A stretch of 64,000 bases of DNA. It comes from Candidatus Thermofontivivens primus. Its GTDB lineage: Bacteria; Sysuimicrobiota; Sysuimicrobiia; Sysuimicrobiales; Thermofontiviventaceae. Within the stretch, counting starts at the first letter, position 1. Each line of letters starts with the position of its first letter. The position numbers and the translations under genes were made by a program. Positions 28,036 to 56,329 of this stretch are shown here, one piece after another. Below the pieces are notes generated by a model. The model searched no databases. It worked only from the letters and a program-made list of their open reading frames with translations, and was not told where the DNA came from. The stretch is taken from contig JAVKJW010000007.1 in the NCBI GenBank assembly GCA_031458695.1, positions 28,219 through 92,218 of the forward strand, given 5' to 3'.

Positions 28036-28041
28036 CTTCTC

Positions 28042-35861: not shown

Positions 35862-35864
35862 GCG

Positions 35865-38496: not shown

Positions 38497-38547
38497 TAAC
38501 AGCTGGGCGATCCCGTCGACAGGAATCTGAACCACAGGAGGCGAGGA

Positions 38548-39387: not shown

Positions 39388-39978
39388 CGGTTCAACAGGA
39401 CTTCTGCAGCGACCATAAGTTCATCTCTTAGAGCTGTAGCGATGGAAGACATAGGTGACGGAGATCCTCCATTGATCGCTTTCGAGCTGCAGGCAGCTTT
39501 TCCCCTCACCCGCCGTTTTTCATAGATCATCGCTCGTCCTGAGCACAGCAAAGGATGTAGCCCAAACCTCCCGCCCGTTTTTGGCCATGACGAGGCGGAC
39601 AGTCCTGAGGCGCGGGAGGGGCACGATGCCTACCCAGGCCCAGGTGCGGCTCGCGATACGGCGGGGGAGCCATCTAGCCAATACGCCTACTGGCTGGGCG
39701 TGCCCCCTATAGGAGACCAGGACACAGCTCTTCTCCACCACATCGTCCAGGCACAGATAGCCAAGCTTCCCCAGGCGCTCCATGACCTGGACAAGGCTTG
39801 GCAGAACTTCTCTAAGGGAGCGGCTTCTTCATCCTCGAAGATTGGTGGCACGAGTGCCGCAGAGGAGCTTCATAATCTTTCCATCTCACCTTCAAACGTT
39901 CTTCATGCACTTCGGGTACTGTTTGGGCGTGGAGGGTTCAAACTCCGAGACAAAAATCTTCGAGAGGAGCGTGAGGTC

Positions 39979-40713: not shown

Positions 40714-41072
40714 ACGAGCAGACGCTCCTGTGGATTGTGGTTGCAATCCTCGCCCTCTTCCTCCTCGGCCCGATCTTGAGTGGGCTTGGTTGGATGGGGG
40801 GATGGGGGCATGGATGGATGATGGGCCCCTGGATGATGGGGAGATGGTGTGGATGGGGCGGGCAGGCTCCTTGGGGTGCTCCATGGATCTTCTGGCTGCC
40901 CCCCTTAATTCAGCTCCTGCTCCTCATCGGCCTCGGGGTGGTCGTGATCGTGCTTTTGGCAAGATCACGACCCGCAGAAGGATCCCCCCTGGAGATCCTG
41001 CGGAAACGCTACGCAGCGGGCGAGATTTCCAAGGAGGAGTTCGAGGAAGCTCGTCGCATCCTGGGGGTATAG
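40710..41072 (+). CDS. SHOCT-domain membrane protein with Trp/Met/Gly-rich periplasmic-side tract
   Basis: ATGA-coupled to the PepSY gene. One or two TM segments, a GWMGGWGHGWMMGPWMMGRWCGWGG tract, and the C-terminal SHOCT signature ILRKRYAAGEISKEEFEEARRIL. Confidence 0.6.
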   Translation: MNEQTLLWIVVAILALFLLGPILSGLGWMGGWGHGWMMGPWMMGRWCGWGGQAPWGAPWIFWLPPLIQLLLLIGLGVVVIVLLARSRPAEGSPLEILRKRYAAGEISKEEFEEARRILGV

Positions 41073-41080
41073 CGGTATAG

Positions 41081-41116
41081 CCGTGTAGGGGCGACCCATG
41101 GGCCGCCCCTACACGG
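41081..41116 (+). terminator. Perfect 13-bp stem hairpin (CCGTGTAGGGGCG...CGCCCCTACACGG) after the SHOCT gene
   Basis: Seen directly in sequence 9 nt after the stop codon. No U-tract, as is common in GC-rich genomes. Confidence 0.4.
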
Positions 41117-41472
41117 CTGGCGCCTGTTCTCCAGGTTCGAGGAAGATCGCCTCGCCAGGACATCCCCTGACCACCGCCTCCTTCGACGCCAAGATTTTGT
41201 GCAAGGCGAATTGACTCTTGGAGTAGGGTCAGGCAGGGTATCCTCTCCCCGGGCAGGAGTTTGATGGTGTATAGTGAATCACCTCATAGAGGGGCTCCCT
41301 GCTGGTCTGGGCGGTCGTGTCTGTCCGAACCAGCAGCTCAGCTCGTCAGAGGAGGGAGAACTCCTGTTATTTTGCCGGCGGACGGAGGACACGATCTTGA
41401 ATTGGATCCCATTTGCTGTCCTATTTTTCACCAATATTGCCATAAGTCAGAAGGCAGGAAGGAGGGAGTGTG

Positions 41473-42690
41473 ATGGGAACGATGAGGCAGCGAATTCTGT
41501 TCCTGCTTCTGCCAGTTGTGATACTTCCCCTTCTCAGCATGGGACCCGTCTTCGCGCAAAACCCTATCGTGATCGGATCGTTCGGCCCATTCTCTCCTCC
41601 CGGGTCTATTGCCCAGTGGAGCGAGGCTGTGGATGGGATCAAGCTGGCCGTGGAGATGATCAACGAACGAGGAGGAGTTCTTGGCCGGCCTATTCGAGTC
41701 CAGTTTGAGGATAGTGCAGGGATTCCTGAGAGGGGGAGGGCTGCCGTTGAGAGATTGATCACCCAGCATAAAGTCCCGGCCATCGTGGGCGGGAACCACA
41801 GTTCGGTTTGCCTGGCCGTGACCGAGATCGTTCATGCGCGTCGCATCCCCTTCATCAATGTGAACTGCTGGGCAAACGCTATTCGGGAAAAGGGATACCC
41901 GGAGGTTTTTAACACAGCCGTCGTAAATGCCAGGATCGCTGTTGCTGGAGCCTACTTCATCAGGCATCTGGGGAGCAAGACCGTGGTCGCCTTTGCAGAG
42001 AATACGGACTTCGGGATAGGCTTAGCACAGGCGCTTGGTAGCCGGCTGAAGGCGATCGCCCCCGATGTACGATACACTTATACCGTATTGGATCGCGAAG
42101 CGAAAGATTTTGCCCCTGCCATCCTTGGTTTTGCCCAGAGGCCCCCAGATGTTGTCGTGACGATTATGGACCCGCCTGCGGGCTACATTATTATTAACCA
42201 ACTCAAGGAGTTCGGTGTGGCACCGACTCCACGAACATGGCTGCTTGATTTGGATGCCCTAGCAGAACTTCCAGACTTTTGGGACAACGTTGAGGAAGCA
42301 GGCAAATTCCTGACAGGAATCGCTCTTTTCCACCCCGCGATGAAGCTCACGGACCTTGGGCAAAGCGTTCGAGAGCGTCATAAGAAACGGACAGGTCGCG
42401 AGGCTAGCAGGCTGGTTTTCCAAGGATTTGATGCGATGTGGGTTATGGCCGATGCAATCAAGCGCGCAGGCTCGCTGGAGGCGGGAGCAATAATCAAAGC
42501 ACTAAGGGCAACAAACCTTGTGGGCACACGAGGGCGTATCTCGTTCAGCCTTGAACGGGGTCCCTTCTTCCAGCAATGGGTTGAGGTTCCCTTCGCAATC
42601 ATCCAGTTTACGGAGGTCAAACAGCCGCTTGAGCGATCAACAATCGTCTTCCCATTAGCTCAGGCGACCGGTACCCTCCGAAGACCTTAA
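41473..42690 (+). CDS. Branched-chain amino acid ABC transporter substrate-binding protein (LivK/Peripla_BP_6)
   Basis: Signal peptide and a type I periplasmic binding fold. GGAGGG lies 6 nt upstream of the ATG. Confidence 0.8.
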   Translation: MGTMRQRILFLLLPVVILPLLSMGPVFAQNPIVIGSFGPFSPPGSIAQWSEAVDGIKLAVEMINERGGVLGRPIRVQFEDSAGIPERGRAAVERLITQHKVPAIVGGNHSSVCLAVTEIVHARRIPFINVNCWANAIREKGYPEVFNTAVVNARIAVAGAYFIRHLGSKTVVAFAENTDFGIGLAQALGSRLKAIAPDVRYTYTVLDREAKDFAPAILGFAQRPPDVVVTIMDPPAGYIIINQLKEFGVAPTPRTWLLDLDALAELPDFWDNVEEAGKFLTGIALFHPAMKLTDLGQSVRERHKKRTGREASRLVFQGFDAMWVMADAIKRAGSLEAGAIIKALRATNLVGTRGRISFSLERGPFFQQWVEVPFAIIQFTEVKQPLERSTIVFPLAQATGTLRRP

Positions 42691-42727
42691 AAAGTTTTCA
42701 TCGCGGGAGGAATCAAAGGTTTGAACG

Positions 42728-43615
42728 ATGATGGAGATCCTTGTTACAGGGGCCATCATGGGAACTTTTTATGCCATGCTGGCCCTCGGTCTTTCCCTGA
42801 TTTTTGGAATTCTCAAGGTTGTCAATTTCGCTCATGGCGAATTCTTTATGATCGGTGCGTACACGTACGCTATTCTCACTCGTACTTTCGGAGTGACCTC
42901 TTTCTTGGCAGTCCTCCCTGCAGCGCTCATGGGAATCGCTGCAGGCCTGATCGTTGAGCGCCTGCTCATGCGACCGCTCTATCAAAGATACATGGAGTGG
43001 GCAACGCTACGCGATGAGTATGCCGTGATTGTCACATTCGGGCTTTCTCTCTTCCTGATCAACCTTGCAAACCAAGTCTTTGGCCCCTACCAGATCAGTG
43101 GTGCGGGGTTGGTCCCGTTGCGGGAGAGAATGCAGGTAGGAGGAGTAACCCTTAGTACCCATCGCGTGCTCGCTTCGATCCTTGGCGCAAGCATCCTCCT
43201 TGCTGCCTATCTCCTCATCAAATACACCTACTGGGGAAAGGCAGTCCAGGCTGTTGCACAAAACCGCTTTGGCGCAGCTATCGCTGGGATTGATTCCACT
43301 CGAGTCAGCCTCATTGTGTTCGGGATTTCCGGAGGCTTGGCTGCTGTCGCAGGAGCGTTGCTCTCTCCCATATTTCCTGCAGAACCCTTCGCGGGAGCGT
43401 TCCCTGCTGTGAAGTCCTTCGTTGTAGTAGTGCTGGGGGGAATGGGCTCTCTTCCTGGAAGCATTATAGGAGCCTATCTCCTTGGCATTCTTGAGCAGGT
43501 GGGTGCAGTGTATGTTTCCTATACATACCGAGATACCTTCGCATTTCTCGTTCTCATCCTTACACTGCTCTTGAGGCCACAGGGGATCCTGGGAGAGCGT
43601 GTTCGCGAGGTCTAA
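42728..43615 (+). CDS. Branched-chain amino acid ABC permease LivH-like
   Basis: LivH-type N-terminus (MMEILVTGAIMGTFYAMLALGLSLIFGILKVVNFAHGEF). Confidence 0.85.
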   Translation: MMEILVTGAIMGTFYAMLALGLSLIFGILKVVNFAHGEFFMIGAYTYAILTRTFGVTSFLAVLPAALMGIAAGLIVERLLMRPLYQRYMEWATLRDEYAVIVTFGLSLFLINLANQVFGPYQISGAGLVPLRERMQVGGVTLSTHRVLASILGASILLAAYLLIKYTYWGKAVQAVAQNRFGAAIAGIDSTRVSLIVFGISGGLAAVAGALLSPIFPAEPFAGAFPAVKSFVVVVLGGMGSLPGSIIGAYLLGILEQVGAVYVSYTYRDTFAFLVLILTLLLRPQGILGERVREV

Positions 43616-43617
43616 GT

Positions 43618-44658
43618 ATGCGAGCGGATTGGCGTATCTTCAACGCAAGAGACATTGGAATGGTCTTGCGGATATCCTTCGGTGCATGGCGGAGGCAGTG
43701 GTTGGACCTCGCCCTCACGTTTGGGATGCTCATACTTGCAGCAATCCTCCCTTTGGGTATTCCATCGATCTACTGGCAAGGCGTGCTCACCGTTACTCTT
43801 GTATACGCCCTTGCCTCCACTGGCTGGAACATCCTGGGAGGTTTTACAGGCCAATTCTCCCTTGCGCCGGCGACTTTCCTGATGCTCGGAATGTATACTT
43901 CTGCCCTGCTCGTACACTACCGTGGGTGGCCTCCGGTGGCAGGAATCCTGGCAACGCTTCCAGTCACGAGCGTGATCGGTATGGTTCTCGGTCTCCTTTG
44001 CCTTCGCCTTAGGGGACCGTACCTGGCGCTTACCACTGTCGCATTCTCAGAGATCACAAGAAACCTCATCAGGTTTTCCTACAACTTTACTCGGGGAGAT
44101 CTTGGGCTCAGTGTTCCTACACTCTATGGGATGGAAGGTAATCGCCTTTACTATTACTACACCATCTACCTCCTGAACATCGCTGTGATCCTGGCCGTCC
44201 ATCTCTTGATGAGCTCTAGGGTGGGCCTTTACCTGCGGAGCATCCGTGATGATGAAGTAGCCGCTGCGGGACGAGGGGTAAACACAGTTCTTTGGAAGAC
44301 CATGGCATTTACCATCAGCAGCTCTATCTGTGGACTGGCTGGTGGCTATTATGTGCACTTCATCGGTCTCGCGAGCCCGGAAATGGGACTGTTGCTTCAA
44401 GCTGGGTTCATCATCAGTATGGCCGTGATCGGAGGGATGGGTACGTTAGGGGGGCCACTCGCAGGCGCCATGCTGCTCTACCCGCTTTCCGAGTACGTTC
44501 GGAGGTTTGGGATCCAGTATATGGTCATCTTCAGTTTTCTCATGATTCTCATGATCAGATTCTGGAAGGCAGGGATTTATGGAACGATCTTGAACATCAT
44601 GGATCGCTGGGTGACTTCAAGTGGAAGTGCCCCTGCTTTGGGTTCAAAATATCTCTAA
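43618..44658 (+). CDS. Branched-chain amino acid ABC permease LivM-like
   Basis: BPD_transp_2-type TM pattern; position in the liv operon. Confidence 0.8.
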   Translation: MRADWRIFNARDIGMVLRISFGAWRRQWLDLALTFGMLILAAILPLGIPSIYWQGVLTVTLVYALASTGWNILGGFTGQFSLAPATFLMLGMYTSALLVHYRGWPPVAGILATLPVTSVIGMVLGLLCLRLRGPYLALTTVAFSEITRNLIRFSYNFTRGDLGLSVPTLYGMEGNRLYYYYTIYLLNIAVILAVHLLMSSRVGLYLRSIRDDEVAAAGRGVNTVLWKTMAFTISSSICGLAGGYYVHFIGLASPEMGLLLQAGFIISMAVIGGMGTLGGPLAGAMLLYPLSEYVRRFGIQYMVIFSFLMILMIRFWKAGIYGTILNIMDRWVTSSGSAPALGSKYL

Positions 44659-45358
44659 ACGCTTCGGAGGCCTCCAAGCGCTCTCGGGCGTCTCTTTTAA
44701 GCTTGAAGAGGGAGAATTGGTAGGACTCATTGGTCCGAATGCTTCAGGTAAGACGACGCTCTTGAATGTGATCAACGGTTACCACACGCCTGACTCCGGG
44801 TGGATCCGATTGCGAGGGGAACGTATCAATGGACTGAGCCCCTTCCAAATTGCCAGGAAAGGTGTTGCCAGGATGTTTCAAATCACCCATATTTTCCCCC
44901 GCATGTCGGTCCTTGAGAACATGCTCACCGTGGGTTATGCGATCGGTCGCATCCCCGCCAAAAGTCTTGTACATCGTGCCCACGAGATTTTAGATCAGCT
45001 CTCTCTCCGGGATTGGATCTATGAACCGGCAGCAAGCCTCTCCGGAGGTCAACGGAAACTCCTGGAATTTGGAGCTTGTTTTATGGCAGCCCCTAGGTTG
45101 GCCTTATTGGATGAGCCCTTTGCGGGTGTCCATCCCGAGCTGAAGGCGGTCATGGAAAGGTTCATTCAATCGTACCATGCAGAGGGAGGGACGGTCTTCA
45201 TTGTGAGCCATGATATACCTGCCCTCGTTTCCATCTGCCCCCGCTTGATTGCCCTGCATGCAGGTGTCCTTCTCGCAGATGGACCTACAGAGCAAGTCAT
45301 CCGAGATGAAGCTGTGCTTGAATCCTACCTCGGGAGTTATACCCCCTCAGAGGTGTAA
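44621..45358 (+). CDS. Branched-chain amino acid ABC ATPase LivG-like
   Basis: Walker A GPNASGKTT, signature LSGGQRKLLEF, Walker B LLDEP. GTG start. Confidence 0.85.
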   Translation: MEVPLLWVQNISKRFGGLQALSGVSFKLEEGELVGLIGPNASGKTTLLNVINGYHTPDSGWIRLRGERINGLSPFQIARKGVARMFQITHIFPRMSVLENMLTVGYAIGRIPAKSLVHRAHEILDQLSLRDWIYEPAASLSGGQRKLLEFGACFMAAPRLALLDEPFAGVHPELKAVMERFIQSYHAEGGTVFIVSHDIPALVSICPRLIALHAGVLLADGPTEQVIRDEAVLESYLGSYTPSEV

Positions 45359-45362
45359 CGCC

Positions 45363-46085
45363 ATGGAGTACCTCCTGGAGGCGGAGCATATAACTGCAGG
45401 CTATATTGAGGACGTCGATGTATTGCAAGAAGTTTCTGTCCGTGTGATACAAGGTTCTATTACAGGAATGATTGGGCTCAATGGGGCAGGGAAGAGTACG
45501 TTCGTGAAAACGGTCTTCGGATTTCTTAAACCCAAAAAAGGGCGGATCCTTCTTGAAAAGGATGATATCACAGGAATAGAACCGCATATATTGATCCGAA
45601 AAGGCCTATGGTACCTCCCCCAGGAATCGAGTCTGTTTCCCCACCTTACCATTGAGGACAACCTCCTTATCCCAACCCGGGTGATAGGCCTGAGTTCGTA
45701 CGAGATCAGAGATCGATTGGAGCACGTCTACACGAGGTTCCCTGAGCTAAAGGCAAATCGAAAGAGGCATGCTGGAGATCTTAGCGGGGGGCAGCAAAAG
45801 ATACTGGAGTTCGCCAAGGTCCTTATGGTGAAACCTCGTTTGCTCTTTATCGATGAACCAACCGTTGGCATCTCCCCGAAGATCGCAGCAGAAATCTATA
45901 CCATGATCCAACAATTTTTAGGCGAGGGAACATCGGTATTTCTCATCGACCATAACCTCCGCAAACTTGTAGATTTGACGGATTATGTGTATGTGATGAG
46001 CCTAGGGCGGATCGTCGCCGAGGGGCCATCTTCCCAGTTTCAAGACAGTCTCAAAGAACAAGTCCAACGATGGTTAGGCCTCTGA
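45363..46085 (+). CDS. Branched-chain amino acid ABC ATPase LivF-like
   Basis: Walker A GLNGAGKST, signature LSGGQQKILEF, Walker B LFIDEP. Confidence 0.85.
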   Translation: MEYLLEAEHITAGYIEDVDVLQEVSVRVIQGSITGMIGLNGAGKSTFVKTVFGFLKPKKGRILLEKDDITGIEPHILIRKGLWYLPQESSLFPHLTIEDNLLIPTRVIGLSSYEIRDRLEHVYTRFPELKANRKRHAGDLSGGQQKILEFAKVLMVKPRLLFIDEPTVGISPKIAAEIYTMIQQFLGEGTSVFLIDHNLRKLVDLTDYVYVMSLGRIVAEGPSSQFQDSLKEQVQRWLGL

Positions 46086-46251
46086 GACTCACCGACATTT
46101 CCACGGTTCGGCACCCTTCCCTACGACTCTTCCGAGACTTTGACATCGTATTTCCGGGAAACCGCTAATTACAAGTATTTTAGGCATGGAAGGCCGAAAC
46201 AGGGGTCGATGGTTATGTATGCGTGGGGAAGAATTAAGGGATTCGCCAGTT

Positions 46252-46794
46252 TCAAGGGCTGGACCGAATCCGAACGAGATGCCAGATCACATACCCGTAG
46301 ATCGCCCAGATTGTGCCAAGGACCAAACCGAGGACGAGCGGCAAGACCGAATCAGGGTAAGGGCTGATGAACCCTGGCTGGGGACTTAGATGGCGAAGGA
46401 TGGCACGGCCGGGCCGGACGGCAGGCTCGAAAACATGGGCTTCCCTTAGCTTGATCGCAGCCTGGACCGTTCCTGTCTCCCCGGAGGCCTCGGCGACGAC
46501 CTCTTGGGGGCGCAGGGAGGATGGCAGAGAGATCCTCGCCCTGCCCTCTTCATCGGTCGAAGCCTCGGAAAGCTGCAGCCAGCCAAAGGTCATCCGGGCT
46601 TTGAAATTGATCATCACCTCCGGAATGGGATTCCCCAGATCGTCTACAACCTTCGCCACCACCTGGGTTGCCCCATCTGGAGCGGTCTGCACTTCCAGGA
46701 TCACCTTGGCAGGCTCCGCTGCAGATGCAGCGAGGACGTATCCCATCAACGCGACCAATACCCCAAAGGCTACGATGTTACGCCCCAGGCGCAT
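46252..46794 (-). CDS. Exported protein with C-terminal TM anchor, unknown function (last gene of the NrfCD-like operon)
   Basis: Signal peptide (MRLGRNIVAFGVLVALMGYVLAASAA), a beta-rich about 110-aa domain and a C-terminal hydrophobic helix (LPLVLGLVLGTIWAIYGYVIW). Overlaps the NrfD-like gene end by 17 nt. Confidence 0.4.
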   Translation of the reverse strand: MRLGRNIVAFGVLVALMGYVLAASAAEPAKVILEVQTAPDGATQVVAKVVDDLGNPIPEVMINFKARMTFGWLQLSEASTDEEGRARISLPSSLRPQEVVAEASGETGTVQAAIKLREAHVFEPAVRPGRAILRHLSPQPGFISPYPDSVLPLVLGLVLGTIWAIYGYVIWHLVRIRSSP

Positions 46795-48352
46795 CGGATA
46801 CCTCCTTTCGGATCACCGTATGAGGCTCCATGACCGCCTCCCGCGTCTCCCAGATGGAGACGATGGGGAAGAGCTTGCTGAAGAGGAGGTAGATCAACAC
46901 GAACCCCGCAAGCGCCGCTGCGGTGATGGACCACTCCACCCAGGTGGGCTTGTAAATCGCCCAGATCACCGGGACGTTCTGGATGGGGAGGAAGGGGTTC
47001 TCTAGCGTCGGTACAATGATCACAAAGCGCTTCATCCACGCCCCAATGTTGACGAGGAGGGACGCCACGACCGCAGCGGTGATGGGCCAGGTGTGGAAGA
47101 TCGGGAGCAGCCCCAAAAACGACCACCCACCCAGGGCGAAAACGACCCACAACGCTACAGTACGGATGGTATCCACGTTCTCAACCGCAGCGACCGGCGA
47201 TCTGGAGATCAACAGGAAGAAGGAGATCCCTGTCGCCGTGGCAAGCGCAGCCAGGATTGGCCGGGGCTGGAACAGCGGGAGATCTCCGAGCCGCCGGACC
47301 CAGGAGATGCGCGGCAGGGTCAGCAACAGCACGGGAAGGAGCACCCCAACGATTTGAGTGAACCAGAACAGTCGGGCGTATGGCCCGCTGAACACGGCAG
47401 TGAGGTACCCCCGCTCGTGTGTGGCCATCTTGTAGGCTGGGGTGAGGTATTCGGCGAAAGTGAAGTAGGCGTAGATCAGCCCGAGCGCGATCACGAGATA
47501 CCCCATGCGCCGAAAGTGGGACTCGGTGATGTAATCCTCCAGGTGGTACGCCCAGCGAAAGGCCGCCATCGCCGTCACCACCGCCGCTGCCCCGCTGAAC
47601 AGCGCCCCGGAGACGAAGTACGGACCGAAAATCGTGCTGTTCCACCCCGCGCGCAGGGTCATACCGAAGATCCAAGAGACCACAGTGTGTACCGAGACGG
47701 CGATGGGAATGATCAGGACCGCCATCACCGCCATGATCGTCTCCAGGCGATGACGCTGCTCTTCGGTCCCCTTCCACCCTAGCGCCAGGACGGTGTAGAG
47801 GCGTCTCCGCCAGGCCGGGCCTTGGGCGAACCGGTCCCGTAGCAAGGCGATGTCGGGGATCATGGGCACGTACAGGAAGAGCGTGCTGCCCGTCAAGTAC
47901 GTGGTGATGGAGAGGATGTCCCAAAGGATAGGAGACGGGAGGCGCCCGTGGAGCAGCACGTTGAGAATCCGATCTGGGCGGCCCATGTCCACGACGGGCA
48001 TCAGCGCACCCATGAGGAGCGAGGCGAACGTGATCGCCTCGGCCATGCGGGTAATCGGCCGCCGCCACTCGGCCCCTGTGATCCGGAGGATCGCCGACAT
48101 AAGGGCACCCACATGGCTCACCCCGATGAAGAAGACGAAGTTGGTGATATACACGCCCCACATAACATAGTCGCGAAGACCGGTCACACCCAGCCCGTAT
48201 CGGAGTTGTATGGAATAGGCGATGATGCCCCAGGCGATGACCGCGAGCAGGAAGCCCACCAAGCCATAGAAGCCTGGCCCGCTCTCCGTCAGGGAGGAGA
48301 GGAGCTGTACCTCGCGATCCGAGAACTGTTCGCGTAACTGAGGCGATCTCAT
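46778..48352 (-). CDS. NrfD/PsrC-family polytopic membrane subunit (quinone/quinol-interacting)
   Basis: 524 aa, about 10-12 TM, with NrfD-family features (the HGRLPSPILWDILSITTYL region). ATGA-coupled to the upstream Fe-S subunit gene. Confidence 0.75.
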   Translation of the reverse strand: MRSPQLREQFSDREVQLLSSLTESGPGFYGLVGFLLAVIAWGIIAYSIQLRYGLGVTGLRDYVMWGVYITNFVFFIGVSHVGALMSAILRITGAEWRRPITRMAEAITFASLLMGALMPVVDMGRPDRILNVLLHGRLPSPILWDILSITTYLTGSTLFLYVPMIPDIALLRDRFAQGPAWRRRLYTVLALGWKGTEEQRHRLETIMAVMAVLIIPIAVSVHTVVSWIFGMTLRAGWNSTIFGPYFVSGALFSGAAAVVTAMAAFRWAYHLEDYITESHFRRMGYLVIALGLIYAYFTFAEYLTPAYKMATHERGYLTAVFSGPYARLFWFTQIVGVLLPVLLLTLPRISWVRRLGDLPLFQPRPILAALATATGISFFLLISRSPVAAVENVDTIRTVALWVVFALGGWSFLGLLPIFHTWPITAAVVASLLVNIGAWMKRFVIIVPTLENPFLPIQNVPVIWAIYKPTWVEWSITAAALAGFVLIYLLFSKLFPIVSIWETREAVMEPHTVIRKEVSDAPGA

Positions 48353-49272
48353 GGGTGGTTCCCTCCTGTGGCTGCAGGTTCAGACTCGGCAGGCGGAGCG
48401 GGGTAAATGCGCTTTCTCGGTGGGAGGTAGTAGACGCGCGGCTCCGTGCCCAACTCCTCCATGAACCGGTAGCCAGCGTTGTTGCTGACCAGCTCAGAGA
48501 AACGCACCGTCTCTCCCTGGGAGTTGGTCACGGCGTCCTCAACCTGATCCCCAAAATAGATCGCCCCCATGGGGCAAGCCTGGACACAAGCGGGGAGCTT
48601 GCCCTCCTTGACGAGCCCCGGGCAGAAGATGCACTTCTCGGTAACCCCCTTGACGTGCGGGTAATTCCAATCGGTGGAGTACGGGCGGCTCAGCTCCTCA
48701 GGGGTATGCGGCGGCTCCACCCAGTTGAAGTACCGTGCCGAGTACGGGCAGGCAGCTATGCAAAAGCGGCAGCCGATGCAGCGGGAGGTATCCTGGATCA
48801 CGATCCCGTCCTCGCGCTTCCAGGTGGCGCTCACCGGGCAGACCTTGACGCACGGGGGATTGTCGCACTGCATGCACGGCCTGGGGAACCAGTAGGGTGC
48901 CGCCGCCGGGTTGTCCTGCATCTTGTAGACCTTGATCCATTCCTGCCCGGGCGGAACGAAGTGCATCGCAGTGCAGGCCTCGGTGCAAGCCCGGCATCCA
49001 TCGCACCGGCTTAGATCGATGACCATCACCCAGCGGCGCTGGGAGGTCTCCAAGGCAGGCTGGGCCGGCAGAGGAGCTGCGGAGGCTAGGGCGACGCCAT
49101 CCGGCCCATCGGGCAGGTGATCAAGATGGATAAGACGCCCTGGAGAGGAGGCGTCTGCCACCAGCGCAGGAACCCCCTTCCGGCGGATCAGGCGATTGAG
49201 GCCCGCGGGGAGGCTCGCTGTCCCGCCGAGCACGGCAATCCACTTGAGGAAAGCTCTCCGCGAGAGTCTCAT
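48349..49272 (-). CDS. Tat-exported 4x[4Fe-4S] ferredoxin-type subunit (NrfC/HybA/PsrB-like)
   Basis: Twin-arginine signal (MRLSRRAFLKWIAVLGG) and four Cys4 clusters (CDGCRACTEAC, CMQCDNPPCVKVCP, CIGCRFCIAACP, CIFCPG..CVQACP). Confidence 0.8.
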   Translation of the reverse strand: MRLSRRAFLKWIAVLGGTASLPAGLNRLIRRKGVPALVADASSPGRLIHLDHLPDGPDGVALASAAPLPAQPALETSQRRWVMVIDLSRCDGCRACTEACTAMHFVPPGQEWIKVYKMQDNPAAAPYWFPRPCMQCDNPPCVKVCPVSATWKREDGIVIQDTSRCIGCRFCIAACPYSARYFNWVEPPHTPEELSRPYSTDWNYPHVKGVTEKCIFCPGLVKEGKLPACVQACPMGAIYFGDQVEDAVTNSQGETVRFSELVSNNAGYRFMEELGTEPRVYYLPPRKRIYPAPPAESEPAATGGNHP

Positions 49273-49282
49273 CGTGGCCCCC

Positions 49283-49726
49283 TCAAGGAGTCCCCAGCAC
49301 AATGAGTTGACCCTTCTGGCCGGCGTGATCCGGGGCACATCCAACTTTGGTACACGCGAACATGTAAATCCCCGGCCTTCTTGCCACGAACCGCACCGTT
49401 ACGGTCTGGCCTGGCGGGATCTCCTGGATCGAGACGTTGGCCTCGGGGAGGACAAACCCATGAGCACCCTCGGGGTCGGCGTTGGTAATCTTAAGGATCA
49501 CTGTGTCGCCAGCGTTGGCCACAATGGTCCCAGGGACCCACTTGCGGAGCTGCACCGCCTCCTCTGCCCCGAGCGGAACGAGAACCACGTTGAACTCCCT
49601 TTCCTGGGGGACTACAGGCCGGGAGGCGGACAGCGGGAGGGTATACGCCTGCCAGACTAAGTACCCCACGGTCAGGCTTCCCAGTACCACGAAGAAAACG
49701 ATCAACAGCCACCCACGCCCATTCAT
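49283..49726 (-). CDS. Membrane-anchored cupredoxin-like protein, CuA-motif variant (C-x4-C-x3-H-x2-Q)
   Basis: N-terminal TM anchor (GWLLIVFFVVLGSLTVGYLV) and a cupredoxin fold, with upstream His (GAHGF) and FACTKVGCAPDHAGQ. GGAGGG lies 7 nt before the ATG at 49726. Confidence 0.55.
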   Translation of the reverse strand: MNGRGWLLIVFFVVLGSLTVGYLVWQAYTLPLSASRPVVPQEREFNVVLVPLGAEEAVQLRKWVPGTIVANAGDTVILKITNADPEGAHGFVLPEANVSIQEIPPGQTVTVRFVARRPGIYMFACTKVGCAPDHAGQKGQLIVLGTP

Positions 49727-49759
49727 CTGTGCACCCTCCAATGGATGTTCATCCCCTGT

Positions 49760-50302
49760 TCATGGGGTCATCGCCCTCGATTGTTCTTCCCGGATGGCCT
49801 GAAGGAGAAGGTTCACCAGAAGGCCGTCTCGAACGGCATACTCCCTGGCGATCCTCACCAACCGACGGTCCAACGAAGAAGTCGTCTCATCCTTGCGCTC
49901 AAGGAGGGATCGGAGGTATCCCAGGGTTTTGTGCTGTTCCCATAACCATGCCTCCACGCCCTCCATCTCCGCGGTCTTCCATGCCAGGGCTTCCTGGTGA
50001 CACAAGAAGGCCATCCTTTCCACTACCCGGATGAGATCGCGTTTATCGCGTTTATTGCGTTCATTGCGTTTGTTGCGTTCATTGGGTTCATCGGGTTGAT
50101 CGAGTTTGAGCTGGAGCTGCCGGAGATCTTCTGTGAGATCTGTCAACTCCAGCCACTCCAAAACGTCCCGTAACGCTTGAAATCCGTATTTTTTGAAGTG
50201 CTCTAAGACCATCTCCCGGGTAGGATCTCCAATCAGCTCGGCCAGAACCGTATACGCCTGTGCACGTCGAAATGCCACGGTTCGGGTGTATGGGACGCTC
50301 AT
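49760..50302 (-). CDS. Hypothetical all-helical protein with in-frame (NERNKR)n charged repeat; possibly a TorD-like redox-enzyme chaperone
   Basis: About 180 aa, no Cys/His metal motifs. ATGA-coupled to the upstream cupredoxin gene. Chaperone assignment is speculative. Confidence 0.3.
   Translation of the reverse strand: MSVPYTRTVAFRRAQAYTVLAELIGDPTREMVLEHFKKYGFQALRDVLEWLELTDLTEDLRQLQLKLDQPDEPNERNKRNERNKRDKRDLIRVVERMAFLCHQEALAWKTAEMEGVEAWLWEQHKTLGYLRSLLERKDETTSSLDRRLVRIAREYAVRDGLLVNLLLQAIREEQSRAMTP
50037..50095 (-). repeat. Tandem 18-nt/9-nt in-frame repeat (AATGAACGCAA(C/T)AAACGC x2 plus GATAAACGC) encoding NERNKR-NERNKR-DKR
   Basis: Directly visible as CGTTTATTGCGTTCATTGCGTTTGTTGCGTTCATT on the plus strand. 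Confidence 0.6.
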
Positions 50303-50757
50303 GGTCGGTCCACAGAACCCCGGGGAGCGACGACCAACCATCCCGCCATCTTGCGTGCCGAGGGGGTCGAACGATCATGATCGCAAGGGATTGGGCAATA
50401 AAAAGGGAAACGTCCGGCACGCGTGGCCAGGAACTCTGTGGTCCTTTCTTCTCCCTCTGGGACGATCAGCGTGATCCCATAGTCAGGGATAGTGAACCCG
50501 TGGGTTCCTTCGACTGCCTGAAGACGCAGGCGAACCCGCTGCCCCACGACCGCATGGATCACCTCAGGCCTCCACTTCCCATCTCCGGCGATCAAGGAAA
50601 TGCCAGAAGCAGGGGAGATTTCCCCCCACCCGAGGAACCTCGCCAAAACGACCAGCGCCGGAAGGCCGACGACCACGGCCAGGACAAGGATCCACGCCAC
50701 CGCTTCACTGCGCCGCCGGTCCCGCCAGGTCTCCATTAGACTGTAGAAAGCGGCCAT
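50299..50757 (-). CDS. Membrane-anchored cupredoxin-like protein, degenerate CuA-like motif (C-x3-C-x-H ... M)
   Basis: TM anchor (AVAWILVLAVVVGLPALVVLARF), upstream His (GTHGF) and FYCPIPCDHD...KMAG. RBS GGAGGAGGG. Confidence 0.5.
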   Translation of the reverse strand: MAAFYSLMETWRDRRRSEAVAWILVLAVVVGLPALVVLARFLGWGEISPASGISLIAGDGKWRPEVIHAVVGQRVRLRLQAVEGTHGFTIPDYGITLIVPEGEERTTEFLATRAGRFPFYCPIPCDHDRSTPSARKMAGWLVVAPRGSVDRP

Positions 50758-51048
50758 CCCTCCTCCCCCTCCAGCCTTATCCCTTCAGTCGCTCCGGCAT
50801 GGCGAATATGCCTCATCGTTTCTGGCTTGCTCTTTCCTCCACGATCGTGGCACATTCTCCCTAACGAGGGAATTCGTAAAAGGGGGGATTTTGCGGTACC
50901 GCGAGATGCGGAGAAGGGAGTTACCGGATCCCGACATGAAGACTACTGAGAGACACGGAGGGGATGTGGAGGGGTACGAAGGCGCGCTACGATACGATGT
51001 GGGGGGGCACGGCGGCGCCGTGCCCCCCCACAGGCGGGGACGCTGATG

Positions 51049-51708
51049 TTATGGCTTGATGAGGCCCTTGCGGATGGCGTACCGGACGAGGTCAGCAGAG
51101 GTGTGGAGGCCGAGCTTCTCCATAATGTTTTTGCGGTGGGTCTCCACGGTGCGCACGCTCAAATACAACCGCTGGGCGATCTCCTGGTTGGTCAACCCTT
51201 CGGCGATGAGCCGCAATACCTCCTGTTCACGTTCCGTTAGCCCATCCTCCTCTCCTGCAGGCACCCGCCGCCGGTATTCCTCGAGAAGGGCTTTGGCCAC
51301 CGAGGGATAGAGGTAGGATTCATCTTTATAGACCGAGCGGATCGCCTGCACCAGCTCGCTGGCCGCTGCTCGCTTCACCACGTATCCCGAGGCCCCAAAA
51401 CCCAGCATGGGAAGGACATATTCCTTGTGGTCGTGCATGGTCAGGGCTAAGATGCGCACCTCGGGATGCGCGGCCTTGATCCTCCGTGTTGCTTCCAGAC
51501 CGCCAATGCCGGGCATGGCGATATCCATGATCACGACATCCGGACGTACCTCCTCCACCAGGGCAAGGGCCTGTTCCCCGTCTTCCGCCTCCCCGACCAC
51601 TTCGATGTCCGGTTGCGCCTCCAGGATCATCCTGATCCCTTCTCGGAACAGCGCATGGTCGTCCACGATGAGGATACGGATTGCGCGCTCAGACTGCGAC
51701 GCGAGCAT
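51049..51708 (-). CDS. Response regulator, NarL/FixJ (LuxR-type HTH) family
   Basis: REC domain (ILIVDDHALFREG...DVVIMDIAMPG) plus a LuxR HTH (LTEREQEVLRLIAEGLTNQEIAQRLYLSVRTVETHRKNIMEKLG). Confidence 0.85.
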   Translation of the reverse strand: MLASQSERAIRILIVDDHALFREGIRMILEAQPDIEVVGEAEDGEQALALVEEVRPDVVIMDIAMPGIGGLEATRRIKAAHPEVRILALTMHDHKEYVLPMLGFGASGYVVKRAAASELVQAIRSVYKDESYLYPSVAKALLEEYRRRVPAGEEDGLTEREQEVLRLIAEGLTNQEIAQRLYLSVRTVETHRKNIMEKLGLHTSADLVRYAIRKGLIKP

Positions 51709-53200
51709 CGGTCTCGACCTCCGCAGGAACAGGAATCTCCACGTACAGCCTGGTCCCACCCCCCGGCCTGGAGTGGATGTTGAACGTGCCACCCAGGAGG
51801 GTTGCCCGTTCCCTGATCCCAACAAGGCCCATCCCCCTCCGGGAGGCCCCTGGCCCTAGAACCTCAGCCAGCTCAAACCCTCTTCCATTGTCCTCGACGA
51901 AGATCACCAGGAGGGTCCCATCGAAGTCCAGGAGCACCCGGACGTGGCTGGCCTGGGCATGTTTGATCACATTGGTGATGGCCTCCTGGACGATCCGAAA
52001 CGTCGCCGTCTCCACCGTGCTGGGGAGCCTGCGTTCTAGGCCGTGCGCATGCAAGTCGTAGGTGATGCCGAGGGGGACGAGGTGGCTCTCCAGATATCCG
52101 GATACCGCTGGCACGAGCCCTAGGTCGTCGAGGACCCTGGGGCGGAGGTCGAAGATGATCTTGTGGATCTCCTCGAGGGTTTGGGTGGCGATCTCCCTGA
52201 GCCTCCGGAGCCGCTCGGCCACCTGGACCTCCTTCTTGGGGAGGGTATTCTCCAGGAACTCCAGGTTGACCACCAAGGTGGCGATGGCCTGGCTGGCTTC
52301 ATCGTGCAGTTCCCGGGCGATGCGCCGGCGCTCCTCCTCCTGAGCGGAGATGACCTTCGCGAGCAGCTCCTGCCGTTCCCGGTGATGCAATTCCAGCTCG
52401 CGGTTGGCCCGGGCCAGATCCCTCGTTCGCTCCGCAACCCTCTGCTCCAGGGTAGCGTAGGAATCCTGCAGGCGTTCGGCCATGCGGTTAAATGCCTCTG
52501 CGAGGCGTCCAACTTCGTCATTGGTGGCCACCTGCAACCGGACACCCAGGTTTCCGGAACCAATCGCCTCGGCCCCCTGTTGTAATTGCGCAATCGGCCT
52601 GGTGATCGCGCGGGTGAGGAGCAGCGCAAAGATCAAGCCCAGCAAAGCTGCAGAAGCGGCGGAAAGGAGGAGTTCGCGCTTAGCCTGGGCTTTGCTCTTC
52701 CTGGCGAGCTCCAACACACCGGCGGCCCGCTCGGCATGGAGCTGGTGGAACTGGTCCATCTGGGAGAAGATGGCATGGGTAGCCAGGGTCGTCTCCTCGC
52801 TCCTCCTTCCCCCCAGGACCCCGAGGTCAGAGGGACGATCCGCCCGCCCCTGAACCGCCTTATTCCAGGAGGCGAGAGCCTCCAGAAGGTCTGTCTCCCT
52901 GGAGTCGAGGCCATCGCGTTGAAGGGAACGTGCCAGGGCTCCGCTCAGGCTGTGGATCTCCCCCATCACAGCGTCCTGGTGCTTTCTCGCAGGTCCCCCC
53001 GAGAGCGAGGGCTCAAGGGCCCGGCTCATGGCCAGTTGGAGTTCCAGGAACAAGTCGTGTTCCTCGAAGATCCTGGCGACCGCATCTACCTGTCTCGCGA
53101 CGGCCTCCAGGCTGCGGATGGAGATGACCGCCACTGAGACCAGCAACCCTACCAGGACCAGGAACGCCGCGATGAGCTTGGTGCCTAAGGAAAGCCTCAT
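51689..53200 (-). CDS. Sensor histidine kinase, NarX-like topology (TM, periplasmic helical sensor, TM, HAMP, HisKA_3, HATPase)
   Basis: Two TM segments flank an about 150-aa helical domain. HAMP (AEAIGSGNLGVRLQVATNDEVGRLAEAFNRMAERL), H-box (ELHDEASQAIATL) and the HATPase G-boxes are present. Confidence 0.85.
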   Translation of the reverse strand: MRLSLGTKLIAAFLVLVGLLVSVAVISIRSLEAVARQVDAVARIFEEHDLFLELQLAMSRALEPSLSGGPARKHQDAVMGEIHSLSGALARSLQRDGLDSRETDLLEALASWNKAVQGRADRPSDLGVLGGRRSEETTLATHAIFSQMDQFHQLHAERAAGVLELARKSKAQAKRELLLSAASAALLGLIFALLLTRAITRPIAQLQQGAEAIGSGNLGVRLQVATNDEVGRLAEAFNRMAERLQDSYATLEQRVAERTRDLARANRELELHHRERQELLAKVISAQEEERRRIARELHDEASQAIATLVVNLEFLENTLPKKEVQVAERLRRLREIATQTLEEIHKIIFDLRPRVLDDLGLVPAVSGYLESHLVPLGITYDLHAHGLERRLPSTVETATFRIVQEAITNVIKHAQASHVRVLLDFDGTLLVIFVEDNGRGFELAEVLGPGASRRGMGLVGIRERATLLGGTFNIHSRPGGGTRLYVEIPVPAEVETDARVAV

Positions 53201-53206
53201 CCCCTT

Positions 53207-53671
53207 CTACTTCACCACCAGGGTCCCCTTCATCCCTCGCTCGTAGTGGTCCGGCAGGAGGCAACCGATCTCAAAGGTCCCCTTCTTCCGGGGGGTGAAC
53301 TTCACCTCCGCCTTCTTCCCCGCTTTTACCTCCACTTCAAAAATCCCCATGCCCTCTACCTCGGCTTCAGAGGTTTCTACCTTCACTTCCAGATCCTTGA
53401 AGTAAGACTGCTCCTCTGCCCACTCGTGGAGCTCGTCCATGTCGATACCCGGCTTTGGAAGCGCGTACACCATGAACTCGTGGGTGACCTTCCCTTTGTT
53501 GACCAGGACGATCTCGGCAGGAACCCCTGCGGTCAATGTGACCTGCTTCGGGCGGAAGTAATACTCACCCATCTCCAGGGTCACTTTCTGGGCCTTCGGT
53601 GCAGCCGACCCTCCTTGCATCAGAGCAAGGGCGATCACCATAGCGATAGCTAGGATGGTTACTTTTCGCAT
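53207..53671 (-). CDS. Secreted type-1 (blue) copper cupredoxin, plastocyanin/auracyanin-like
   Basis: Signal peptide (MRKVTILAIAMVIALALMQGGSAA). T1 Cu ligands H (THEF), C-x4-H-x4-M (GCLLPDHYERGM). Confidence 0.7.
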   Translation of the reverse strand: MRKVTILAIAMVIALALMQGGSAAPKAQKVTLEMGEYYFRPKQVTLTAGVPAEIVLVNKGKVTHEFMVYALPKPGIDMDELHEWAEEQSYFKDLEVKVETSEAEVEGMGIFEVEVKAGKKAEVKFTPRKKGTFEIGCLLPDHYERGMKGTLVVK

Positions 53672-53732
53672 CTCCCTTCCCTCCTTTTTGTTTGGATTTC
53701 TTGCGCAGGCACCGCAGATGCTTTGTCCTCCC

Positions 53733-54140
53733 TTAGGGTTCCACGATCACCTCCCCTTGCATCTCCGTATGCTCTGGGCTGCATATCACTGTGCAATAGA
53801 AAGGAAAGGTCCCGGTCTTTTGAGGGACAAATTCGATGATCTGGTAGCTCCCGGGGGTGATCGGCCCGCTCTTTACCTTTAACCCCCGGATACGCAGCCC
53901 GTGGGTAACGTCGGCGCTTGTCACCTTCAACCGGACCTTCTCCCCCCTCCTCACCACGATCTCTGAGGGGAGCCATCCCCCTGCCTCATGGGTCCTAGCG
54001 ATGATGGTGATCTCTCCAGAGGCAGAAGCCACGGCCGGATAATAGATGAACTGATAGGCCAGGATGACCACAGGTATCCCCACTACCGTGAGGAGGACAA
54101 GAAGGAACGCAGTCCACTCAAGACGCCGCATCCTCATCAC
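53733..54140 (-). CDS. Membrane-anchored CuA-motif cupredoxin (C-x3-C-S-x2-H-x2-M)
   Basis: TM anchor (WTAFLLVLLTVVGIPVVILAY), upstream His (VTHGL) and YCTVICSPEHTEM, a canonical binuclear CuA ligand spacing as in COX II/NosZ. Confidence 0.65.
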   Translation of the reverse strand: MMRMRRLEWTAFLLVLLTVVGIPVVILAYQFIYYPAVASASGEITIIARTHEAGGWLPSEIVVRRGEKVRLKVTSADVTHGLRIRGLKVKSGPITPGSYQIIEFVPQKTGTFPFYCTVICSPEHTEMQGEVIVEP

Positions 54141-54141
54141 C

Positions 54142-55599
54142 TCACCCGAGATAGAGCCACAGGAAGAGCACCGTCACACCTGCCAGGTATGCAGAGAGGG
54201 GGACGAGCGCCCGCCTGGCCTTGGTGGATGGGGAGAAGTTTTGCCTGGCAATGGTATCCCCCACCTTGATGGAGAGAACAAGGCCCAGAAGGAGCGTGGG
54301 AACCTGGATGTAGGGCAACAGGTGCGGTGCATAAGGCGTCCAGGGATACCCTTTAGTCCCGAAGAGGTCCCATCCCCAGCCGAATGGATCAGAGAGGACC
54401 GAGAGCGCATAGGAGATGTTGGGGAGCACGAACGAGAAGCTGAAGGCGATCCATCCCGCGAGCCCTAGGGGAACCAGGGTGTAGGCGTAGTCCACGAACA
54501 GCTTCTTCAGGTCAGGGCGGCTTCCACCGGCGAAGACGCGGGAGAGCCAGGTAAATACAAGGTGAAGGGCTGGGGCCGCGACTAGGATGGATCCCAGGAA
54601 GATCGCAGCATACAGGAGAAGGCCAGAGAACGAGGTGAAGTTGGCCCAATCCTTGATCCTTCCCCAAGGCCCCAGCATGACGATGGAGTACATGATCGCC
54701 GCCCCTAACATGATGAAGGCCTTGTAGGCCTCATCCAGCTTGCGTCCCTTCTCCACTTGGAGGTCCTGAAAGAAGGGACGAGTGCGGATGGTGATGTTCT
54801 CGTAAGGACAGGCCTTGATGCACTCGGTGCACAAGAGACAATAGGTGTTCCGCTCCATGGGCGCTCCGGGGAACTCGAAGTTGGGGCAACCGTACCCTCC
54901 CACGCCCCCGACCCGAAGGCTTGCCTCGGTGCTCCCCCGGAAGCAGGCCTTGAACTGGCACTGCCGGCAGACCTCTGCATCCACCCGCCGCACCTCCACG
55001 GGAGCCGCCATGGAGTAAAGCCCCAGGAACCCTCCCACCGGGCAGAGGTAGCGGCAGAAGGTCCTTCGCTCAAACACCAGGTGGGTGACCGCGGCGATGA
55101 TTACGAGCCCCAGGAGAACGGCTCCAGTGACGATGGGACGGGTGGTGAGGACAGCGCTGGTGAGAGCGATGGATGCGAATCCGAAATTGGCTACCCACAG
55201 GTTCCGCAGCCCCTTGGGCCACTTTCGTGCCAGGCCAAAGGTTTTCGGCTTCCAGAGGATGAACGCCCGGCGCTGCATCCACTCCCCGACGGCGGGGATC
55301 GGACACATGGCACACCAGATCCTCGCCCCGAAGGGCACGAGGACCAGGATCAGCAGGGCCCACCAGACGATCCAGACGAAGATGATGGCGAAGTTCTTGG
55401 CCCCAATCGGGGTCCCCAAGAACCCAGCCATGATCACGATGGTGAAGACGAACAGGTTGGGGAGGATCAGGGCGAACTGCAGCCACCGCTGGCGAACGAG
55501 CCATCGCACAGGACGATATCCCAGGAGGTCTTTGCGCCAGGCAACCTCCTGGGGCGGACGCAGGATAGGACGCGCAATCGCAGTGCTACGCTGTGCCAT
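54142..55599 (-). CDS. NapH/MauN-type membrane polyferredoxin (2 x CxxCP plus 2 x [4Fe-4S] ferredoxin motifs) with extra C-terminal TM domain
   Basis: WCAMCP and FCRYLCP motifs on TM-flanking loops. Ferredoxin clusters CRQCQFKAC and CLLCTECIKACP. About 5 additional C-terminal TM helices. Confidence 0.65.
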   Translation of the reverse strand: MAQRSTAIARPILRPPQEVAWRKDLLGYRPVRWLVRQRWLQFALILPNLFVFTIVIMAGFLGTPIGAKNFAIIFVWIVWWALLILVLVPFGARIWCAMCPIPAVGEWMQRRAFILWKPKTFGLARKWPKGLRNLWVANFGFASIALTSAVLTTRPIVTGAVLLGLVIIAAVTHLVFERRTFCRYLCPVGGFLGLYSMAAPVEVRRVDAEVCRQCQFKACFRGSTEASLRVGGVGGYGCPNFEFPGAPMERNTYCLLCTECIKACPYENITIRTRPFFQDLQVEKGRKLDEAYKAFIMLGAAIMYSIVMLGPWGRIKDWANFTSFSGLLLYAAIFLGSILVAAPALHLVFTWLSRVFAGGSRPDLKKLFVDYAYTLVPLGLAGWIAFSFSFVLPNISYALSVLSDPFGWGWDLFGTKGYPWTPYAPHLLPYIQVPTLLLGLVLSIKVGDTIARQNFSPSTKARRALVPLSAYLAGVTVLFLWLYLG

Positions 55600-56146: not shown

Positions 56147-56329
56147 TTCCTCGCCTCCTCACGTTGTGTCGTGAGAGTCGGGCTCAGCCTTGCCCTACGC
56201 TCACGCTACCATGAGGTTCTGGAAGGGCACAACACACGATGGGGTAGGCGTTTTCACAAGTTTGCCCTCTTCCGTTGAGCGGGGGAATGTATAGGGGAAA
56301 ACCGCATCGGGAATCGGGTGGGGACTGTA

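Follow-up and report, generated by a model that had tools for sequence, protein, structure and literature searches.

A candidate haem-free quinol:cupredoxin oxidoreductase with an ActC-like membrane subunit in Candidatus Thermofontivivens primus

Modules that combine an iron-sulphur (Fe-S) ferredoxin with an NrfD-family membrane protein and operate without a molybdoenzyme are already known, NrfCD, DsrOP and HybAB being examples. A related pair of subunits is found in alternative complex III (ACIII, ActABCDEF), which in Chloroflexus also reduces a cupredoxin, auracyanin; proton coupling in ACIII has been proposed and is unproven. Here we describe a further module of this kind in a 64,000-nt stretch of Candidatus Thermofontivivens primus (assembly GCA_031458695.1, contig JAVKJW010000007.1, positions 28,219–92,218, forward strand), called hereafter the window. 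Its three genes belong to a co-oriented gene run on the minus strand (46252–56146) and encode an ActC-like membrane subunit of the NrfD family, a ferredoxin with a predicted twin-arginine translocation (Tat) signal and a protein with an immunoglobulin (Ig)-like domain. Because molybdoenzyme-free Fe-S/NrfD modules are known, the novelty lies in the partners and the composition; the principle is shared.

On the evidence below, it is moderately probable that this trio is a menaquinol:cupredoxin oxidoreductase, which would work in the manner of ACIII while standing outside it, and would contain neither haem nor molybdopterin. A literature search on NrfD, ActC, ACIII and cupredoxins, whose coverage excluded most subscription journals, returned no description of the module. 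The three genes, and the cupredoxin gene next to them (Cup5), are the following.

46252–46794, minus strand: third subunit, 180 amino acids, with signal peptide, Ig-like (Big_1) domain and C-terminal transmembrane helix (Pfam Big_1 2.4e-07, below cutoff)
46778–48352, minus strand: NrfD-family integral membrane subunit, ActC-like, 524 amino acids, about 12 transmembrane helices (Pfam NrfD 1.9e-28)
48349–49272, minus strand: predicted Tat-exported ferredoxin, 307 amino acids, four Cys4 motifs (Fer4_11 1.6e-22)
49283–49726, minus strand: Cup5, membrane-anchored cupredoxin with a CuA-like two-Cys loop (Cupredoxin_1 1.1e-07)

The three subunits and their relatives

The original prediction, made from the sequence alone, had drawn a translationally coupled Fe-S/NrfD-like pair at 46778–49272, and these coordinates proved exact. 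The ferredoxin open reading frame (ORF) runs over 48349–49344 on the minus strand, but translation most credibly begins at the ATG at 49272 (MRLSRRAFLKW), which a GGGGG ribosome-binding site precedes. The segment SRRAFLK is an exact Tat consensus (S/T-R-R-x-F-L-K), in line with the Tat signal claimed for this subunit; the Pfam TAT_signal match is weak (17.4 bits, under the cutoff of 22.7). The coupling of the two genes is likewise visible at their junction, ...cacccATGAgatcg..., where the TGA stop and the ATG start overlap by four bases (ATGA). The ferredoxin contains exactly 16 Cys, arranged in four motifs at residues 90 (CDGCRACTEAC), 133 (CMQCDNPPCVKVC), 165 (CIGCRFCIAAC) and 214 (CIFC-x11-CVQAC), from which four [4Fe-4S] clusters are predicted. 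Among solved structures it comes closest to PsrB, to ArrB and to ActB in its C-terminal half, with Thermus PsrB at the top (3.7e-34). Among the NCBIfam models DsrO scored best (184.5 bits, cutoff 200), followed, far below their cutoffs, by QrcC, TtrB (145 bits versus 416) and NrfC (136 bits versus 378).

The membrane subunit matched Pfam NrfD (PF03916) with 100.4 bits, against a cutoff of 25.8. When it was compared by phmmer to the solved structures of the PDB, four ActC chains of ACIII were retrieved (from 9.5e-62 for 6btm_C to 3.5e-57), ActF was at noise level, and Thermus PsrC (2vpz) was unmatched at E<=1. The same picture was obtained with the AlphaFold model of the protein (pLDDT 73.9, pTM 0.77): the top four Foldseek matches were ActC chains (TM-score to target 0.78–0.84), then came ActF, and Thermus PsrC was absent among the fold matches. 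Identity was 36–37% to ActC, and 19–20% to NrfD and HybB of E. coli.

Residues conserved in more than 95% of 521 ActC sequences, according to Calisto and Pereira (PMC8076601), were mapped onto the protein. Twelve of the 13 residues of the ActC N-side half-channel are identical, as are four of the six of the P-side half-channel, including the proposed gate Arg (R442, ActC Arg395). The original prediction had suggested a check of the quinone site: two of its four ActC residues are kept (S140 and D145, corresponding to ActC Ser164 and Asp169). In an alignment of 13 sequences the mapped ActC-type residues are nearly all invariant across the family, and S140, D145 and R442 are fully so. Relative to ActC, an insertion of about 80 amino acids (residues 346–426) forms two extra helices, which brings the total to about 12. 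The NCBIfam DsrP model gave 101.8 bits (cutoff 350), canonical ActC cores scoring about 62 bits with it.

From the ActC matches, the fold, the kept residues and the NCBIfam scores, the protein is assigned to the 10-helix class of NrfD proteins, which comprises ActC, DsrP, QrcD, HmcC and HybB (Duarte et al. 2018, PMC6303296); within it, it is nearest to ActC and a canonical member of no named family. The earlier label "NrfD-like" therefore holds at the level of the Pfam family, but not in the sense of an NrfD/PsrC-type protein, since the subunit is of the ActC/DsrP type, 10-helix class, with two helices added. Nor does it fall inside PsrC/TtrC: ActC matches are of the order of 1e-62, Thermus PsrC is unmatched and E. 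coli NrfD is only 20% identical. A clean separation of the family from ActC was also sought in a neighbour-joining tree, where ActC formed a clade apart with only 44% bootstrap; for DsrP, QrcD, HmcC, TtrC and PsrC1, left out of this tree, NCBIfam scores were used as a substitute.

The start codon of the third-subunit gene lies 17 nt ahead of the NrfD stop, with a GGAGG 7 nt upstream. Of 40 ORFs immediately 3' of related NrfD genes, 21 contain Big_1 and 11 contain cytochrome c domains, and the Ig-like domain is fused to NrfD in P0031 and in an Acidobacteriota locus (L031, NrfD + Big_1, 711 amino acids). The aligned homologues share a SPQPGxISPYP segment and a GGIWxTYxY helix, and no conserved metal ligand (Cys, His or Met) was found among them; we read this single-pass protein as a structural subunit. 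As it is conserved and sometimes fused, the module is counted as a trio: the "minimal pair" of the original prediction stands as its Fe-S/NrfD core, and is incomplete without the Ig-like protein.

Tat signals and molybdoenzymes in related loci

Absence of a catalytic partner had been part of the original prediction, together with the argument that an own Tat signal sets the ferredoxin with NrfC, HybA and ActB, apart from those that hitch-hike on another subunit. A tblastn search with 13 proteins of the molybdopterin oxidoreductase family MopB found none in the 64-kb window (best E 0.13), and neither the cluster proteins nor ten further long ORFs of the window showed a molybdopterin subunit when scanned with Pfam, in agreement with the first point.

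The second point was examined across 76 related loci (numbered L001 and so on). A search that took one genome for each species returned 80 loci. The bacterial ones come from Armatimonadota, Chloroflexota, Acidobacteriota, Bacteroidota, Actinomycetota, Symbiobacterium, Planctomycetota, Gemmatimonadota and others, and the archaeal ones from Nitrosopumilales, Thermoplasmatota, Methanomassiliicoccales and Bathyarchaeia. Neighbouring MopB genes were sought with our own ORF calls and a hidden Markov model built from the MopB proteins of these loci. Restricted to loci whose upstream sequence extends over 2.5 kb or more, the count gave an adjacent MopB for none of 41 Tat-bearing ferredoxins versus 12 of 14 Tat-less ones (Fisher p = 2e-10, a value that is indicative only, the loci being related). 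In the Tat-less class, all 13 of the large upstream ORFs scanned were molybdopterin oxidoreductases. The Tat argument is thus an empirical rule inside the module's own family. It provides a practical annotation aid, an own Tat signal meaning no molybdoenzyme partner; the NCBI name of the membrane subunit, "molybdoenzyme membrane anchor subunit", is probably misleading for this family.

Among seven archaeal loci from metagenome-assembled genomes (MAGs; L020, L040, L033, L039, L042, L050 and L075), five carry a ferredoxin called as Tat-bearing. A Big_1 protein lies 3' of the module in L020 and L040, and L039 has a Big1 BLAST match.

Copper proteins around the module and the proposed electron path

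Upstream of Cup5, the gene run continues as follows.

49760–50302, minus strand: all-helical protein, 180 amino acids (no Pfam or NCBIfam match)
50299–50757, minus strand: second membrane-anchored cupredoxin, with an aberrant loop, C-PIP-C-DHD (Cupredoxin_1 1.6e-06)
51049–51825, minus strand: two-component regulator, NarL/GerE-type (from its translation and equivalent genes in related loci)
51689–53200, minus strand: two-component kinase, HAMP/HisKA_3 (from its translation and equivalent genes in related loci)
53207–53671, minus strand: exported type-1 cupredoxin (C..H..M), 154 amino acids, with a Met/His/Glu-rich insert (Cupredoxin_1 2.6e-14, Copper-bind 5.4e-06)
53733–54140, minus strand: CuA-motif cupredoxin, 135 amino acids (COX2/Cupredoxin_1 matches; H..CxxxCxxxHxxM motif)
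54142–55638, minus strand: NapH/MauN-like polyferredoxin, 498 amino acids, Fer4_5 (NCBIfam NapH/MauN 4.4e-11)
55586–56146, minus strand: CuA-motif cupredoxin, 186 amino acids, with a helix at each end (COX2/Cupredoxin_1 matches; H..CxxxCxxxHxxM motif)

The domain layout of the two-component system was deduced from Pfam-annotated equivalents in L001, L002, L088–L090 and L052. The operon had been described as containing cupredoxins, a small helical protein and an exported 180-residue protein; this was correct, but the same-strand genes up to 56146 had gone unmentioned, namely the two-component system (51049–53200) and a block of three cupredoxins and the NapH-like polyferredoxin (53207–56146).

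CuA cupredoxins, such as the C-terminal domains of COX2 and NosZ, carry a binuclear copper on the motif H...C-x3-C-x3-H-x2-M. This ligand motif is complete in Cup1 and Cup2, and Cup5 has a C-x4-C-x3-H-x2-Q variant. The Cup5 ligand set (H89..C125-x4-C130-x3-H134-x2-Q137) is invariant in 24 homologues; compared with the CuA loop of COX2 and NosZ it is one residue longer, with Gln replacing Met. The AlphaFold 2 model of Cup5 (pLDDT 87) has a cupredoxin fold. Its best local superposition was with the CuA domain of NosZ (root-mean-square deviation 1.6 Å, 32% identity), nitrosocyanin and NirK ranking equally, and its top Foldseek matches were a mixture of nitrosocyanin, NirK, NosZ and ba3 subunit II; matches of this kind do not tell a CuA site from a type-1 or red-copper one.

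Cup5 lies directly upstream of the ferredoxin, NrfD and Ig-like genes in every context examined (L001, L088, L089 and L090). A type-1 cupredoxin gene and a HisKA_3/GerE two-component system usually come before it, and a homologue of the type-1 protein at 53207–53671 is found just upstream of the Cup5-type gene in L001, L088 and L090. In six Acidobacteriota loci, an ORF of 135–149 amino acids with a full CuA motif occupies the Cup5 position. Cup5 is proposed to be the immediate redox partner of the ferredoxin, and the cupredoxins, named as likely electron acceptors or donors in the original prediction, gain support as partners from this synteny, that is from the adjacency of Cup5 and the equivalent position of the CuA-motif proteins in Acidobacteriota.

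No protein of the cluster contains a CxxCH motif. In other loci monohaem cytochromes c adjoin the module (L004, L012 and Dehalococcoidia), or an EB_dh haem-b protein does so (L023). Small redox proteins that appear to be swapped around a constant core would be the pattern expected of electron carriers. In a Gemmatimonadaceae MAG (L068, 1895–9944), the module, with NrfD fused to Big_1, comes directly after the genes of a cytochrome b/c fusion, an MtrA-like decahaem protein and an MtrB/PioB porin; this context would tie the quinone module to an outer-membrane electron conduit.

The remaining genes of the run are less constant. The second cupredoxin (50299–50757) is absent from the closest syntenic loci, L089 and L001, and is accessory. 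The helical protein, which is ATGA-coupled to it and has a charged NERNKR repeat, had zero homologues in 85 loci, and just two distant ones among 1.84 billion representatives in an exhaustive search; by these counts it is a near-orphan outside the conserved core. A role as TorD-like chaperone for the Tat ferredoxin was considered for it and rejected, given that it has no Pfam or NCBIfam match, is absent from related loci and is nearly an orphan. The second redox block (53207–56146) recurs in L089 with all four genes in identical order; any link of 53733–56146 to the Fe-S/NrfD module would be hypothetical. We know of no description of free-standing proteins that carry a complete CuA motif and lie on either side of a NapH-like one, no search for such a description having been made.

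Genes for copper handling turn up repeatedly, in unrelated phyla, no more than a few kb from the module. They include a Cu P-type ATPase with HMA/YHS proteins (L004 and L052, the latter locus being the homologous operon of Symbiobacterium thermophilum), CueP (L001), CopD with SHOCT (L088) and YHS (L090), and two multicopper oxidase/NirK-like proteins with a SoxE-type cupredoxin (L002). In the window itself, two Gly/Met/Tyr/Trp-rich exported or membrane proteins are encoded at 39700–41072 on the plus strand (MMGGYGMMGGYG... and GWGHGWMMGPWMMGRW), the second with a SHOCT-like end; they may bind copper. In L088 the neighbours of the module likewise include a SHOCT protein, along with a cupredoxin and CopD.

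The role that we infer for the module is the following. The three genes at 46252–49272 would encode a single membrane complex that lacks both a molybdopterin subunit and haem c. Menaquinol would be oxidised at an outer-side (P-side) site of the 12-helix ActC-like subunit, and its electrons would enter the Tat-exported ferredoxin, docked on that subunit, and pass into its four [4Fe-4S] clusters. From there they would reach the membrane-anchored cupredoxins on the same side, Cup5 first and next probably the type-1 cupredoxin. Menaquinone has a potential of about -74 mV and cupredoxin/CuA centres lie above +150 mV, so that the quinol-to-copper direction is favoured. Because the half-channel residues of ActC are retained, proton release or translocation through them may accompany quinol oxidation. 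The copper carriers would feed terminal enzymes encoded elsewhere, such as an aa3-type oxidase, NirK or NosZ. Close relatives at 73% identity, Ca. Geohabitans, possess coxABC, nirK and nosZ (phylum CSP1-3/Sysuimicrobiota; PMC11604079), and the products of these genes are plausible acceptors.

Several points weigh against this reading. No terminal oxidase or reductase was detected among the long ORFs of the window that were scanned with Pfam. All four Cys of the group-III motif are present in the ferredoxin (CIGCRFCIAAC), whereas ActB has C-x2-T-x2-C-x3-C and a [3Fe-4S] cluster near its quinol site, so that the proximal cluster is predicted to be a [4Fe-4S] one here. At the quinol site, ActC His139 is replaced by Asp122 and ActC Asp253 by Ile228; Asp at the first of these positions is the state in QrcD, DsrP and Wolinella PsrC (PMC8076601). 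The Tyr before the third Cys, adjacent to the proximal cluster and essential in QrcC (Tyr113; PMC13059093), is a Phe here, and F, Y, M and other residues occur across the family. Finally, the recurrent copper-handling genes would fit a role in copper homeostasis equally well.

That role would be one in copper stress or cuproprotein maturation, where quinol electrons control whether periplasmic copper, or copper sites, are reduced or oxidised, with the help of the CopI-like cupredoxin and the NapH/CcoG-like polyferredoxin and under control of the adjacent two-component system. We consider it unlikely. Beside the genes of copper ATPases, HMA, CueP, CopD/SHOCT, YHS and multicopper oxidase/NirK-like/SoxE proteins in several loci, it could draw on the type-1 cupredoxin, which is weakly CopI-like (NCBIfam CopI 56 bits, cutoff 280), on the Gly/Met-rich exported proteins at 39700–41072, and on the presence in the cluster of a NapH/MauN-family polyferredoxin, a family belonging to a wider group with the cupric reductase CcoG among its members. 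However, copper exporters beside cupredoxin genes may merely serve metallation, and the same Fe-S/NrfD/Ig-like core is paired with cytochromes c, EB_dh or MtrAB in other phyla. The strong conservation of the ActC-type proton-channel residues points to energy-transducing respiration, and oxidation of Cu(I) with menaquinone as acceptor would be uphill.

An electron flow in reverse, as in Qrc, seems rather improbable: electrons of a periplasmic or extracellular donor would pass through the copper proteins to the quinone, whose reduction would be powered, or rendered electrogenic, by protons taken up through the N-side channel. Such a cupredoxin:quinone oxidoreductase would account for the quinol-site acid Asp122, as in QrcD and DsrP and unlike the His of ActC, for the N-side half-channel being better kept than the P-side one, for DsrP and DsrO being the best NCBIfam models, and for the L068 module behind an MtrA/MtrB(PioB)-type conduit, a type used by iron oxidisers. 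But cupredoxin/CuA potentials far above that of menaquinone would imply a high cost in proton-motive force, no donor-oxidising enzyme is encoded in the cluster, and the equivalent of QrcC Tyr113 is a Phe. Far more remote, by now, is a split operon, in which the trio would serve a Psr/Ttr-like molybdoenzyme with its catalytic subunit elsewhere in the genome. The two-helix insertion is common to a subgroup of relatives with adjacent MopB, and in L010, whose module is 73% identical to that of the window, an operon of MopB (859 amino acids, Tat), a Tat-less ferredoxin and an NrfD protein (482 amino acids) with the same insertion follows directly downstream (10467–15251). This MopB is, however, already provided with a Tat-less ferredoxin and an NrfD protein by its operon, and the shared insertion hints at a recent common ancestor of Tat-type and MopB-type modules. 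The split operon is further opposed by the ferredoxin's own Tat signal and the count of none in 41 versus 12 in 14, and by the lack of MopB in 64 kb, and it would leave the conserved Ig-like subunit and the cupredoxin synteny unexplained.

Returning to the quinol:cupredoxin reading, the trio would be of use beyond this genome. In lineages known from MAGs only and possessing terminal oxidases, NirK or NosZ, the link of these enzymes to the quinone pool is often unclear, and the module is a candidate for it. It would be a compact trio, sister to or intermixed with ActC, with interchangeable partners (copper proteins, cytochrome c or outer-membrane conduits), and simpler than the six-subunit ACIII for testing proton translocation by ActC-type subunits. 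A bolder version, which we put forward tentatively and with some doubt, is that the module represents an unrecognised and widespread "copper complex III" core, whose ActC-like subunit would translocate protons and, together with a four-cluster ferredoxin, reduce CuA-type cupredoxins that stand alone. If true, these proteins would provide the first case of CuA centres that work as mobile or tethered carriers, unlike the entry sites of oxidases and NosZ, and the core with cytochrome c, EB_dh or MtrAB would be a general coupling site between quinol and periplasmic carriers, ranging over Chloroflexota, Acidobacteriota, Bacteroidota and several archaeal phyla.

Other features of the window were recorded. 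A scan of 45900–56500 yielded zero promoter-like sites and terminator-like sites at about background level, and was uninformative. The G+C content falls from about 0.61 to 0.50–0.54 over 28000–46000, a plus-strand ABC-transporter block that abuts the cluster and may be foreign DNA. On the other side, a second two-component system lies at 56330–58503, with transposase-like ORFs just beyond (59109–60690 and 63090–63905), and a PIN-domain toxin-like ORF at 61432–61836. At 7418–8915, on the minus strand, a hemerythrin, a small Cys-containing protein resembling DUF1858 by eye and a hemerythrin + DUF2249 protein are encoded in a row; such gene sets are frequently linked to NO or O2 sensing or repair.

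Comparison with described complexes

PsrABC and TtrABC are approached by the ferredoxin, which is closest to Thermus PsrB among solved chains and for which four [4Fe-4S] clusters are predicted. The module differs from them by the lack of a catalytic subunit, by the ferredoxin's own Tat signal, and by a membrane subunit for which PsrC was detected neither by sequence nor by fold. With E. coli NrfCD it shares a Tat-exported four-cluster ferredoxin and an NrfD protein that would serve small periplasmic redox proteins with no molybdoenzyme. However, E. coli NrfD has 318 amino acids, eight helices and 20% identity, the nrfC model remains far below its cutoff, and NrfCD is partnered by cytochromes, NrfB and NrfA, whereas the cluster described here has no cytochromes.

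DsrOP, of DsrMKJOP, and with it HmcBC and QrcCD, resemble the module in having a Tat-exported ferredoxin, a membrane subunit of the 10-helix class and Asp at the quinone-site position, and DsrO and DsrP provided the best NCBIfam scores. Both scores are nevertheless below their cutoffs (200 and 350), DsrJ, DsrM, DsrK and haem c are missing, and the partners are cupredoxins.

ACIII is closest as regards the membrane subunit, ActC being its sole solved relative. Most of the proposed ActC proton-channel residues are kept, along with Ser164, Asp169 and Arg395, and in both systems the periplasmic Fe-S subunit has a Tat signal and no active molybdenum site is needed. In contrast to ACIII, the module is devoid of a cofactor-less MopB-like B1 domain, of the pentahaem ActA, the monohaem ActE, ActD and ActF, only one NrfD-family ORF being found in the cluster, with no second, ActF-like one. 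Its ferredoxin is 307 amino acids long without a MopB domain, and has four complete Cys4 motifs and no [3Fe-4S] site; its membrane subunit shows the changes His139 to Asp and Asp253 to Ile and two extra helices; and its Ig-like third subunit has no counterpart in ACIII. The module lacks features that define ACIII, as it does those of Psr/Ttr, of DsrMKJOP and of E. coli NrfCD, and shares with them the principle of a ferredoxin joined to an NrfD-family subunit.

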